From positions 903,006 to 967,005 of the forward strand of contig CBDDCY010000012.1 in the NCBI GenBank assembly GCA_965226435.1: 64,000 nucleotides of DNA, given 5' to 3'. A program made the translations under genes and the position numbers. This DNA is from Bryobacterales bacterium. Lineage in GTDB: Bacteria; Acidobacteriota; Terriglobia; Bryobacterales; UBA6623. The notes under the pieces were generated by a model. The model was not told where the DNA came from, ran no database searches, and saw only the letters and a list, made by a program, of their open reading frames with translations. Within the stretch, counting starts at the first letter, position 1. Each line of letters begins with the position of its first letter. Shown piece after piece: positions 8,218-26,170 of this stretch.

Positions 8218-9654
8218 ATGAACGTTTCGATCTTGTCGCGGAATTTGGGCCGCCTGGCGATCCTCGCACTGGCGATCTCAGTAGTCGCCGCCGAGCAGCC
8301 GCCGGATGTGCTTTTCATCGCGGTGGATGACCTCAACGACTGGGTCGGCGTGTTGGGCGGTCATCCGCAAGCGAGGACGCCGAATATCGATCGACTGGCC
8401 CGGCGCGGCGTGTTGTTCACGAACGCCCACGCCTCGGCGCCGGCTTGCAATCCCTCGCGAGCGTCGTTGATGACCGGCGTGCGACCGTCGACGTCGGGGG
8501 TTTACAACAACCCGCAGGATTGGCGGCAATCGAGGAAACTGCGGGGCTTGGCGACGATCCCTCAAACGTTTCGTGCCGCGGGCTATCGCGTGATTGGCGG
8601 CGGCAAGATCTACCACGCCCACACGATTTATCCCTGGGGCTTCGAAGGCTTCCCGCAACCGGAGGCGTGGGACGACTATTACCCCTCGCGACGGCGGCAG
8701 CTTCCCGATGAAATCACGCCGCGTGATCGACCGGTCAATTCTCACCCCGCGATGTACGCGGGCGTCTTCGACTGGGCTCCGATTGTCGCGGAAGATTCGG
8801 CCATGGGCGACGGGCAAGTCGTCGGTTGGGCCGAGCGACAACTGGCCAAAACACACGAAAAACCCTTATTCCTCGCGGTGGGAATCTATCGGCCGCATAT
8901 TCCGTGGTATGTTCCCGAAAAATATTTCGCGCAACATCCATTGGCAACGGTCCAGTTGCCTCGCGTTCTCTCGAATGACCTGGCTGATGTGCCGCCGGCG
9001 GGGCAAAGGGGCTTGTTCCGACATTGGCACAAGTGGGTCGCCGAGAACGGGCAGTGGAAGAAGGCTGTCCAGGGGTATTTGGCGAGCGTGGCGTTCGCGG
9101 ATGCCATGGTGGGGCGGCTGCTGGACGCGCTGGAGAAGAGCGGGCGCGCGGACCGCACGGTGATTGTTCTTTGGTCGGACCACGGCTATCACTTGGGCGT
9201 GAAGGAGCATTGGGAGAAGTTCGCGCTGTGGGAGCAGACGACGCGAGTGCCGCTGATCTTCGCGGGTCCGGGAGTAGCCAAGGCCGGTGGACGCAGCGAG
9301 CGGCCGGTTTCGTTGCTCGACATTTACCCCACGCTGGCCGAGTTGGCGGGTTTGCCGATTCCAAAACACGTCGAGGGACGAAGCCTGACGCCGTTGTTGG
9401 CAAATCCCGAGGCGGACTGGCCTTATGCCGTCGTAACGACCCAACGGCGGAATAATCACGCGGTGCGGTCGGAACGCCATCGCTATATTCGCTATGAGGA
9501 CGGGTCGGAGGAACTTTACGATCACGCCTCGGATCCGTTGGAGTGGAAGAATCTGGCGGGGGATGCCGCCTACAACGCGATCAAGATGAAGTTGGCGAAG
9601 TGGCTGCCGAAGGTGAACGCGCCGGATGATCCGCCGCTGCCGGCGCGGGAATAG
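8218..9654 (+). CDS. Secreted Cys-type sulfatase (iduronate-2-sulfatase-like)
   Basis: Signal peptide, VDDLND, CNPSR formylglycine motif, GKIYH and SDHGYHLG. Confidence 0.92.
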   Translation: MNVSILSRNLGRLAILALAISVVAAEQPPDVLFIAVDDLNDWVGVLGGHPQARTPNIDRLARRGVLFTNAHASAPACNPSRASLMTGVRPSTSGVYNNPQDWRQSRKLRGLATIPQTFRAAGYRVIGGGKIYHAHTIYPWGFEGFPQPEAWDDYYPSRRRQLPDEITPRDRPVNSHPAMYAGVFDWAPIVAEDSAMGDGQVVGWAERQLAKTHEKPLFLAVGIYRPHIPWYVPEKYFAQHPLATVQLPRVLSNDLADVPPAGQRGLFRHWHKWVAENGQWKKAVQGYLASVAFADAMVGRLLDALEKSGRADRTVIVLWSDHGYHLGVKEHWEKFALWEQTTRVPLIFAGPGVAKAGGRSERPVSLLDIYPTLAELAGLPIPKHVEGRSLTPLLANPEADWPYAVVTTQRRNNHAVRSERHRYIRYEDGSEELYDHASDPLEWKNLAGDAAYNAIKMKLAKWLPKVNAPDDPPLPARE

Positions 9655-10665: not shown

Positions 10666-11532
10666 TCAAGGGTTCTCGGCCGACGGCTCGGGCAGCGTCT
10701 CGCAAACACAGCGGAAACCGATGTCATGGCTGTAGGAATGCGGCGTGACTTTGAAACGGTCGGAGCCGCGCAACACGCGTGACGTCGTAAACCATGATCC
10801 ACCGCGCACAACTCGCTCGAAGCCTTGGCCGGGTCCGGGCGGGTCTTGCGGCGGGGAAAACTCGTAATAGTCTCCGGCATACCAGTCGGCGAGCCATTCC
10901 CAAACGCCGCCCGCCATATCGTACAGGCCCCAGCGGTTCGGTCGAAAGCTGCGTCTCGGCGAAGTATAGTCCCAGGCGTCCTGCCACCCGGTGCCGCGGT
11001 AGTTTGCCTCTTCGTGGGTGAGGCGGTTTCCCCACGGAAATTTCAGATCGGCTTGGCCGCCGCGGGCGGCGTATTCCCACTCCGCTTCGGTCGGCAGGCG
11101 TCCCCCGGCCCAGCGGCAGTAGGCGTCGGCTTCGGACCATTTCATGCGCACGATGGGGTGGTCCCTTTTTCGCCAGTCTTGGTTGAAGGGCGGCGGCGCG
11201 GGCATGGCGGCCTCCTCGGCTGCGGCGAACAAGGCGTAAGCGGCGACGGAAGCCTCGGCGTGGCCGATCCAAAAACCGTGTGTTAAACGAACTTCGTGAC
11301 GCGGCAGCTCGTCGTCGTCGCAATCGTAGTCGTTGGCAAGGCATCCCATTCGGAAGGCGCCGGCGGGGATCCATACGTAAGTTTGCCCATCAACCGGGTT
11401 GACACGAGCGGCTCCGGGCTTCGGGGATTCGGAGGATTGCGCGAAACCCACGAGGCCGCAAATCGCCGCCACAAGGATGAAGGTGGACGGAATGCGCGCC
11501 CATCGGACACGTTGTCGAAGTCGAGTGAGCAC
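10666..11532 (-). CDS. FGE-sulfatase (SUMF1) domain protein
   Basis: RLPTEAEWEYAARGG, N.WGLYDMAG, RGGSW and GFRC motifs; lacks the catalytic CxxxxC. Confidence 0.88.
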   Translation of the reverse strand: MLTRLRQRVRWARIPSTFILVAAICGLVGFAQSSESPKPGAARVNPVDGQTYVWIPAGAFRMGCLANDYDCDDDELPRHEVRLTHGFWIGHAEASVAAYALFAAAEEAAMPAPPPFNQDWRKRDHPIVRMKWSEADAYCRWAGGRLPTEAEWEYAARGGQADLKFPWGNRLTHEEANYRGTGWQDAWDYTSPRRSFRPNRWGLYDMAGGVWEWLADWYAGDYYEFSPPQDPPGPGQGFERVVRGGSWFTTSRVLRGSDRFKVTPHSYSHDIGFRCVCETLPEPSAENP

Positions 11533-11649
11533 TTTACGGAAAGACGTTCGTGCCGCGCATAGGCGGCTGGAACCATAGGTGCGCGGCGGGCGGAGGTCAC
11601 TCCGCCCGCCGGTTCCAACATCAGTTTTAGCTTCGTAGGCGTCGAAAGG

Positions 11650-12171
11650 CTATTTCGCTAACCGGCTGCAAGCATTCGCGGCGCCCGCGATGTCGATCGC
11701 GCCGCCGCCCGACTCGATATGGGCGACCTTGCCTTGCTTGTCGACAACGAAAGTCGTGCGATTGGACATGTTGTTTTCGGCGTTGTAGATACCGAAAGCC
11801 TTCGAAGCTTCGCCCTTGGGATCGCTTAACAGGGCGAATTCCAAATCGAGAGACTCGGCGAATTTCTTATTGGTTTCGATGTCGTCGGTGCTGACACCGA
11901 ACACAACCGAATCGCTGCCGGTGAATTTGGCGATACCAGCCTGGTACGCCTTCATTTCACGCGTTCAACCACCGGTGAAAGCCTTCGGGAAAAAGGCCAA
12001 GACGACATTCTTCTTGCCGCGATAGTCAGACAAGCTCGCGTTGCCGCCGGCGGTGGTGGCGAGCGTGAAGTCCGGGGCCATGTCGCCCACGGCGGGCGTT
12101 GCGGCTCGCGAGACGCCGGCACCTACAGCCGCCATCCCCATCAGAGCGCTTCTGCGCGTCATTGAACTCAT
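11650..12171 (-). CDS. Selenocysteine-containing peroxiredoxin (AhpC/TSA, BCP/AhpE-like); UGA at 11965-11967 read as Sec
   Basis: ORFs 11965-12525 and 11650-11955 are in the same frame and read FFPKAFTGG[TGA]TREMKAY, i.e. PxxxTxxC with C replaced by U. GGAGG RBS before ATG 12171; conserved Arg in NRTTFVVD. Confidence 0.9.
11929..11950 (-). promoter_or_regulatory. Putative bacterial SECIS hairpin
   Basis: GGCG-UACCA-GGC-UGGUA-U-CGCC stem-loop begins 14 nt after the in-frame UGA, with a G-containing loop and a bulged U. Confidence 0.7.
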
Positions 12172-12331
12172 ATAGGTCCTCCCAATCGCAGGCCGCAAGA
12201 CACGGACTACGCCTTGGGGAAGTGTAGCAGAGGCGGATGGGTCGGGAGAAGGCCTGGGGCGATGCCGTGGCGCCAGTGTATCTGGTGCCTGGTAAATGTT
12301 GTGAAGACGGCCGGCCTCCCGGGGGGATGCA

Positions 12332-26083: not shown

Positions 26084-26170
26084 AGCCGCGAAGCGGCGAC
26101 GGGAGCCATAGCCCCGGGCTTCAGCCCGGGGTCCCCACCGAAAATCACGACAAGCCCCGGACGGGGCGCG
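26084..26170. repeat. REP/MITE-like element
   Basis: agccgcgaagcggcg (exact reverse complement at 54132-54146) plus a ccccgggcttcagcccgggg hairpin. Confidence 0.55.

Follow-up and report, generated by a model that had tools for sequence, protein, structure and literature searches.

A gene on the minus strand of a 64,000-nucleotide stretch of a Bryobacterales genome (assembly GCA_965226435.1, contig CBDDCY010000012.1, positions 903,006 to 967,005; hereafter the window) very probably encodes a selenocysteine (Sec)-dependent peroxiredoxin of the AhpE/BCP-like branch of the AhpC/TSA family. This reading of the sequence is based on a single UGA codon at the peroxidatic position, a conserved and covarying hairpin close behind it, and the presence in the genome of selA, selB, selD, and a tRNA-Sec.

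Reading Frame and Annotation Status

Read with TGA as Sec (U), the frame at 11650-12171 gives a protein of 173 residues, MSSMTRRSALMGMAAVGAGVSRAATPAVGD...FFPKAFTGG-U-TREMKAYQAGIAKF...GAANACSRLAK, closed by a TAG at 11650-11652. Its sole in-frame TGA is codon 69 (11965-11967, minus strand), which falls on the peroxidatic Cys of the PxxxTxxC motif (P62, T66, and U69). The Pfam domain AhpC-TSA (PF00578) matches residues 28-151 with an E-value of 2.9e-38 (131.1 bits versus a gathering threshold of 26), and the Redoxin domain matches at 2.8e-25. The central elements of the gene are as follows.

11650..12171, minus strand: whole gene, 173-codon putative Sec peroxiredoxin precursor (translation with TGA = U; Pfam; orthologues)
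11965..11967, minus strand: UGA, putative Sec codon 69, at the peroxidatic position (58-copy alignment; contigs of four runs)
11974..11988, minus strand: active-site motif P62-K-A-F-T66, followed by G-G-U69 (translation)
11929..11950, minus strand: hairpin of selenocysteine insertion sequence (SECIS) type, GGCGUACCA-GGC-UGGUA(U)CGCC, with the apical loop GGC at 11939-11941 (folding and 58-copy comparison)

The initial annotation of this locus, made from the letters of the window, had placed an in-frame UGA at the peroxidatic Cys, homology continuing in frame beyond it, a hairpin 14 nt downstream, and a single Cys near the C-terminus, and had expected automated pipelines to split the gene. The DNA string that it quoted was located on the minus strand, and these points were borne out: homology runs on past the UGA in all TGA orthologous copies, C168 is the only Cys of the protein, and the hairpin is found at 11929-11950, where it is conserved with covariation among Sec forms. 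Gene calling with translation table 11 yields two pieces instead, one of 68 codons and a 101-amino-acid open reading frame starting at M73, and the public collection stores the 68- and 101-residue halves as separate unnamed products (NCBI and ENA records). Homologues with either UGA or Cys at the site and a full set of Sec genes, both of which the initial annotation had suggested looking for, were found; TGC or TGT in reads at 11965-11967, which it had named as evidence to the contrary, was not observed in the contigs of four runs.

Conservation of Codon 69

Sixty-one genomes of the same order, including the host genome (G000), were searched with stops read through, and matches of at least 131 bits were taken as orthologous copies. 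The search returned 58 such copies from 54 of the 61 genomes, the other seven holding distant paralogues only, and the aligned codon was located in all 58. Forty-six copies, from 45 genomes, have TGA there; 11 have TGC or TGT, and L074 alone has CGC. The reading frame carries on past codon 69 in every copy, and the mature part is 45-95% identical to the window protein among orthologues, with conservation on both sides of the codon. Cys forms at this site, with 60-68% identity, are also present in the protein collection. Among 200 more genomes sampled evenly from the phylum, matches at E <= 1e-35 turned up in 15, each containing a single TGA somewhere within the matched region; G109, which is unpublished, is among these 15.

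Four public runs, each from a different study, have only TGA at 11965-11967 in their contigs. All runs were available as contigs, which record presence only and carry no information on level, strand, or ends. Codon 69 is spanned by contigs from two RNA libraries; such contigs do not prove transcription, which counts against the proposal of a working gene, and they are uninformative where they give no cover, at 11810-11902 in one library (X9) and over most of the stretch in the other (X11). Since TGA is conserved in 46 of 58 copies with the frame kept and no variant letter, a nonsense mutation, a sequencing error, and a reassigned code are excluded for practical purposes.

With Arg encoded at the peroxidatic position, the single CGC copy (L074:301-303, in genome G028) cannot work as a peroxidase of either the thiol or the selenol kind; G028 has a Sec copy as well (L046).

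A SECIS-Type Hairpin Downstream of the UGA

The hairpin (GGCGUACCAGGCUGGUAUCGCC), which RNAfold forms, starts 14 nt past the UGA. All 46 Sec forms fold into the same structure (mean -10.0 kcal/mol), as against a mean of -4.3 kcal/mol for the 12 non-TGA forms, of which one (L076, TGT) keeps the hairpin. The loop consensus is G-G/U-N, with an invariant G at loop column 27. Paired cells were counted on two hand-written registers, and the bulged register was the better one (85.7% versus 78.3% paired); with partners slid, pairing in it is at most 58.5%, and two-sided changes occur in five of its nine pairs. At each of two apical pairs, 23-33 and 26-30, 44 sequences have AU; the remaining two in each case have UA at the former (TAC..GGT to TTC..GGA) and GC at the latter (CAG-GCT to CGG-GAC). 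The change to GC turns the encoded Gln-Ala into Arg-Asp, and hairpin pairing is thus preserved at the expense of protein sequence. Variants of the lower stem include GCG...(U)CGC, GGA...UCC, and GCC...GGC. Metagenome runs contain many short, high-depth contigs exactly at 11921-11954, which fits nucleotide-level conservation across many community members.

Several results weigh against the element. As a single sequence, the 66-nt fold has z = -1.53, with 14 of 200 shuffles folding as well; this is not significant, so support for the hairpin comes from the orthologue comparison. The sequences compared are kin, and shuffle and rank tests for that reason overstate support. Counted pair by pair in one fixed register, between 5 and 22 of the 46 sequences fail to pair in the lower stem, and the RNAalifold consensus consists of four apical pairs only, with a covariation term of -0.17 of -2.18 kcal/mol. 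A search of the whole window against Rfam at gathering thresholds gave no match at the hairpin, and at E <= 10 the interval 11880-11990 returned chance-level matches to unrelated families only.

Taken with the orthologue comparison, the hairpin is read as a putative SelB-binding SECIS element. Like the bacterial SECIS of Escherichia coli fdhF, it lies inside the coding sequence soon after the UGA and has a G in the apical loop, and most orthologues of the window gene have a bulged U in the stem; unlike in fdhF, the window gene has its bulge on the 3' side, and GGA...UCC variants have none. The loop G, the bulged U, and the spacing are what we take to be the characteristic features of the fdhF element.

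The one Cys-form orthologue with a full SECIS-type hairpin (GCAUACCAGGCUGGUAUCGC; L076:283-339, TGT, genome G059) probably reflects a recent change from Sec to Cys.

Selenocysteine Machinery and Alternatives to Sec Insertion

The host genome (13 contigs, 6.05 Mb, 94% complete) encodes homologs of selA (536 bits, cut-off 268), selB (351 bits, cut-off 242), and selD (366 bits), together with a tRNA-Sec (selC; 79.6 bits), which ARAGORN reports as tRNA-SeC with anticodon tca; all four score above curated cut-offs. The selD gene (L010, G000:C10:123324-124247) has one in-frame TGA of its own near the N-terminus (...GVKTAG-U-ASKLNP...), and SelD is therefore itself a selenoprotein in this genome. TGA is otherwise an ordinary stop: of the 25 open frames in the window that reach 350 codons or more, 14 terminate with it, and it occurs nowhere inside the four neighbour genes that have Pfam support.

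Translation of the UGA as Trp, Cys, or Gly, through a reassigned code or near-cognate suppression, is very improbable. One public product of a relative (P0016) does read W at the codon (FTGGWTRE), although it was evidently called under a code in which TGA specifies Trp. The use of TGA as a stop in this genome argues against such read-through, as do the position of the codon, exactly where homologues have the catalytic Cys, and the presence of tRNA-Sec, selA, selB, and selD; furthermore, the role of the peroxidatic residue is established, and Trp or Gly in its place would kill a peroxiredoxin. A pseudogene or assembly error, with a nonsense mutation or miscalled base at the catalytic Cys codon, is how gene callers in effect treat the locus when they store it in halves, but the chance of it is negligible given TGA at the same codon in 45 independent genomes with the downstream frame intact, the lack of any variant at 11965-11967 in the contigs of the four runs, a hairpin specific to the TGA forms, and the Sec machinery in the genome.

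In the host genome, two further genes of AhpC/TSA fold also carry an in-frame TGA in their active sites. One (L080, G000:C11:754282-754674) has a hydrophobic N-terminal region followed by F-Y-R-G-F-W-U-P-F-C, a Prx-like UxxC site; the other (L081, G000:C13:35417-35797) reads D-A-T-P-G-U-Q-R and is of BCP type. Both have hairpins with GG-containing loops 15-18 nt past the UGA.

Protein Family, Fold, and Catalytic Residues

By sequence, the closest solved proteins are Bcp1 of Sulfolobus solfataricus (1.3e-22) and AhpE of Mycobacterium tuberculosis (2.7e-22). The mature chain was modelled with AlphaFold2 from the 58-row alignment, with a predicted local distance difference test score (pLDDT) of 95.1; with this model, Foldseek places AhpE (4x0x) at the top with a template-modeling (TM) score of 0.94 and Bcp1 (3drn) at 0.89, over the whole model length. 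All listed matches are peroxiredoxins, with the thioredoxin-type peroxiredoxin fold. For a place in the AhpE subfamily the picture is mixed: AhpE comes first in Foldseek and near the top by sequence, but Bcp1 scores about equal. Against a finer assignment, the NCBIfam equivalog models all score below cut-off (BCP NF006960, 81.8 versus 140; PrxQ NF053650, 72.9 versus 260; PrxU NF040737, 60.4 versus 270). The window protein is an AhpE/BCP-like peroxiredoxin, other than PrxU, without a named model.

Beyond the active-site motif, the following residues were identified as candidates for catalytic roles.

11758..11760, minus strand: R138 (R115 in mature numbering), conserved catalytic Arg (invariant, 58/58)
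11668..11670, minus strand: C168, the only Cys, candidate resolving residue, in the C-terminal helix (invariant, 58/58)

T66 is kept in 57 of the 58 copies (Ser in L068). P62 is replaced by Val in six Sec-form orthologues (L051-L056, a clade of family f3; F-Y/F-V-L-A-F-T-G-G-U). The arginines of the window protein are R6, R7, R22, R51, R71, R138, and R170. In the model, U69 lies where the second helix starts, and C168 falls within the helix of mature residues 139-149. The invariance of C168 in Sec and Cys forms alike slightly favours a role as the resolving residue.

The N-Terminal Extension and Probable Export

The N-terminus of the window protein and the sequence in front of it contain these elements.

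12103..12171, minus strand: signal-like N-terminal extension, residues 1-23, with T5-R6-R7-S-A-L, an Ala/Gly-rich h-region, and S-R-A before A24
12151..12156, minus strand: twin-arginine codons R6 and R7 (translation; 58-copy comparison)
12177..12183, minus strand: Shine-Dalgarno-like GGGAGGA, 5 nt before the ATG at 12169-12171 (read from the sequence)

Solved cytoplasmic homologues align from residue 28 onward, leaving the first 23-27 residues as an extension with a charged start, and a signal-like extension is present in all 58 copies. In all likelihood, judging from these sequences, the window peroxiredoxin is exported. That it is instead a cytoplasmic Sec-peroxiredoxin, in which residues 1-23/27 are no cleaved signal and translation starts later (for example at M31) or the extension serves as an anchor or in another role, is improbable. 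Such a reading would agree with the non-significant Tat-signal model scores described below and with the closest solved relatives, AhpE and Bcp1, which we take to be cytoplasmic enzymes. It is opposed by the Shine-Dalgarno-like sequence in front of M1, by the n-, h-, and c-regions ending in small residues that all 58 copies keep though sequence and type vary, and by the loss of the conserved V-G-D of the first strand that a start at M31 would entail; an exported PrxQ-type peroxiredoxin also has a precedent (PMC3322552).

The route of export is less certain. Signal peptides for twin-arginine translocation (Tat) have a consensus like S/T-R-R-x-F-L-K before a weakly hydrophobic h-region. The motif [STD]-R-R-x-[AVI]-[LVI] occurs in 27 of the 58 copies (the RR copies), the window protein having T-R-R-S-A-L-M, and the maximum over 10 residues on the Kyte-Doolittle scale is 2.05 in these 27 versus 2.64 in the other 31. 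The latter (20 Sec-form and 11 other) have a classical, more hydrophobic non-RR signal. The 27 RR copies make up exactly one clade of the protein tree, with a support of 99 in the Shimodaira-Hasegawa-like approximate likelihood ratio test (SH-aLRT), and the signal type therefore switched once. The genome encodes a TatC homolog (174 bits).

The description of the N-terminus as Tat-like in the initial annotation thus stands as regards the twin-arginine motif and the weak hydrophobicity; it is not carried by the Tat-signal hidden Markov models (HMMs), nor does it extend to the distant Sec-form orthologues, which are non-RR. Among five N-termini run against these HMMs, none gave a significant score and two had no match, which tells against a Tat signal; the best scores were E = 0.22 with TIGR02811 for the window protein and E = 0.11 with TIGR01409 for the N-terminus of L041 (12.9 bits versus 16.7).

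On present sequences Tat appears to be rather the likelier export route in the clade of the window gene. Export through the general Sec translocon (here not an abbreviation of selenocysteine), the twin Arg being an ordinary positive n-region, is a lesser but serious possibility. The non-RR signals of the other 31 orthologues and the HMM results favour it, and the protein has no cofactor that would call for folded export. It sits less well with retention of the RR motif in 27 of 27 members of a strongly supported clade, with the less hydrophobic h-regions of that clade, with the tatC gene, and with R22 in the c-region, a basic residue of the kind presumed to act in avoidance of the Sec translocon. 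The enzyme as such does not need Tat, because the 20 Sec-form and 11 other orthologues use non-RR signals.

Evolution of Sec and Cys Forms

A quick IQ-TREE protein tree was computed with the Sec/Cys column masked and rooted at the midpoint, without an outgroup. It consists of two well-supported halves, the RR clade (26 Sec and 1 Cys) and the remainder (20 Sec, 10 Cys, and 1 CGC), and requires at least 4-5 changes of state. The midpoint root has Sec forms on either side of it. In the RR clade the only Cys copy belongs to a tandem pair (L031:785-2013, genome G015), where it stands beside a Sec copy; both are RR, and the branch of the Cys copy is the longer of the two (0.22 versus 0.027). The presence of Sec on both sides of the root, this Cys copy, and the hairpin retained in L076 suggest that the Cys forms arose by Sec-to-Cys reversion, a direction drawn from a midpoint-rooted tree.

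Proposed Mechanism

In the mechanism that we favour, SelB-GTP-Sec-tRNA(Sec) would bind the hairpin at its G-G/U-N loop and insert Sec at UGA69. The precursor would be exported to the cell envelope via its N-terminal signal, by Tat in the clade of the window gene and by the general Sec translocon in the distant orthologues. There the U69 selenolate, positioned by T66 and R138, would reduce H2O2 or organic hydroperoxides and be converted to selenenic acid, which C168 may resolve to a selenenylsulfide. Re-reduction could be carried out by a periplasmic thioredoxin-like protein fed by a transporter of DsbD/CcdA type, by analogy with the TlpA-PprX pair of Caulobacter.

The genome encodes one DsbD_TM protein (97.7 bits). 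Against the proposed reduction route, a thioredoxin-like or DsbD-like partner was found neither next to the gene in the window nor among the 57 open frames flanking 29 related loci.

A fuller account can be offered tentatively, although it is unlikely to hold in all its parts: the protein would be a selenoenzyme without a cofactor that folds in the cytoplasm, leaves it by Tat, and serves as the main envelope peroxide scavenger of Bryobacterales-like Acidobacteriota, working by a U69-C168 selenenylsulfide cycle with reduction across the membrane; Sec would be ancestral and dominant in the exported subfamily and the Cys forms secondary, L076 carrying a fossil SECIS.

Genomic Neighborhood

In the window the peroxiredoxin gene has as neighbours an FGE-sulfatase-like gene (formylglycine-generating enzyme family), a 2-hydroxyacid dehydrogenase, a sulfatase, and aspS. 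The region is flanked by the sulfatase (8218-9654, plus strand) and the FGE-sulfatase-like gene (10666-11532, minus strand), and an FGE-like gene also adjoins the peroxiredoxin gene in relatives of the same genus. The only recurrent neighbour at related loci is a PPIC-type rotamase (10 of 29).

Past the stop codon lies one further element.

11585..11610, minus strand: G+C-rich 11-bp inverted repeat, about 40 nt past the stop, without a U tract (read from the sequence)

This repeat is possibly a terminator; a scan for consensus terminators did not report it, and the terminator and promoter scan gave nothing usable for the peroxiredoxin gene. Between the peroxiredoxin gene and aspS there is a tandem direct repeat of about 150 nt (12332-12443/12488-12599, and also 12440-12478/12592-12630), its copies 97% and 92% identical and each with a small terminator-like hairpin. 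The only Rfam match of the window is an Acido-Lenti-1 small RNA at 26084-26131 on the minus strand (37.3 bits, gathering score 37), in keeping with the acidobacterial names that the homologues of the peroxiredoxin bear.

Relation to Known Peroxiredoxins

The Sec-peroxiredoxin family (pfam00578, TxxU) is long known. A 2006 survey counted 12 such genes with five Cys-to-Sec events and listed, for Acidobacteria, four selenoproteins in three families (PMC1794560); Table 2 of an analysis of Global Ocean Sampling (GOS) data gives 253 Sec-peroxiredoxin sequences (PMC2398784); and a 2026 review treats the family (PF00578, TxxU) with PrxU as the studied example (PMC13188914). In a term search of that review, "signal peptide", "periplasm", "secreted", and "Acidobacteri" are all absent (PMC13188914). 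Our literature searches found no exported or Tat-linked Sec-peroxiredoxin and no acidobacterial selenoproteins past the 2006 count; the survey supplements, which lay outside the search, may list these genes. The window gene is a genuine conserved selenoprotein gene, and a new member or subclade of the abundant TxxU family.

With that family, and with PrxU of Eubacterium acidaminophilum, the window protein shares the AhpC/TSA domain and a PxxxTxxU motif with Sec as the peroxidatic residue; in that family too, many homologues have Cys instead, and changes between Sec and Cys are frequent. It differs from PrxU in its low score with the PrxU model, its AhpE/BCP-like character, its export signal, and its invariant C-terminal Cys. 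The likeness to M. tuberculosis AhpE (Rv2238c; 1xxu, 1xvw, and 4x0x) extends over the whole mature chain (36-38% identity) and includes the active-site context A-F-T-G-x-C; AhpE, however, is a 1-Cys peroxiredoxin by the titles of its PDB entries and has no signal extension, whereas the window protein has Sec and the C-terminal Cys. S. solfataricus Bcp1 (3drn) is the best sequence match in PDB. Public Cys-form homologues are often named "peroxiredoxin Q/BCP", but the active-site context of the window protein is F-T-G-G-U and not the D-T-P-G-C of E. coli BCP/PrxQ, from which its NCBIfam score also sets it apart.

As an exported enzyme the nearest parallel is PprX of Caulobacter crescentus. It is described as a PrxQ-type protein with an N-terminal signal of about 20 residues, PxxxTxxC, and a conserved Arg, reduced by the exported thioredoxin-like TlpA, which is fed by the DsbD-family protein ScsB (PMC3322552). 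PprX has Cys and not Sec, and no TlpA- or ScsB-like gene adjoins the window gene; the likeness between the two is one of description.

Significance

The annotation of this genome, like that of at least 44 related genomes in the search, lacks a functional antioxidant enzyme. No current NCBIfam model covers the branch, and a dedicated model of that type with a Sec flag would mend many records. Across one order of Acidobacteriota, Sec is the prevailing state of an exported AhpE-like peroxiredoxin and not the exception. The value of the finding lies in annotation and in natural contrasts, between Sec and Cys and between RR and non-RR signals, and it adds no new mechanism or kind of system. Pairs of Sec and Cys copies (one of them tandem), a switch of signal type between clades, and a Cys form with a SECIS hairpin provide material for studying why peroxidases keep Sec and how selenoproteins are exported.

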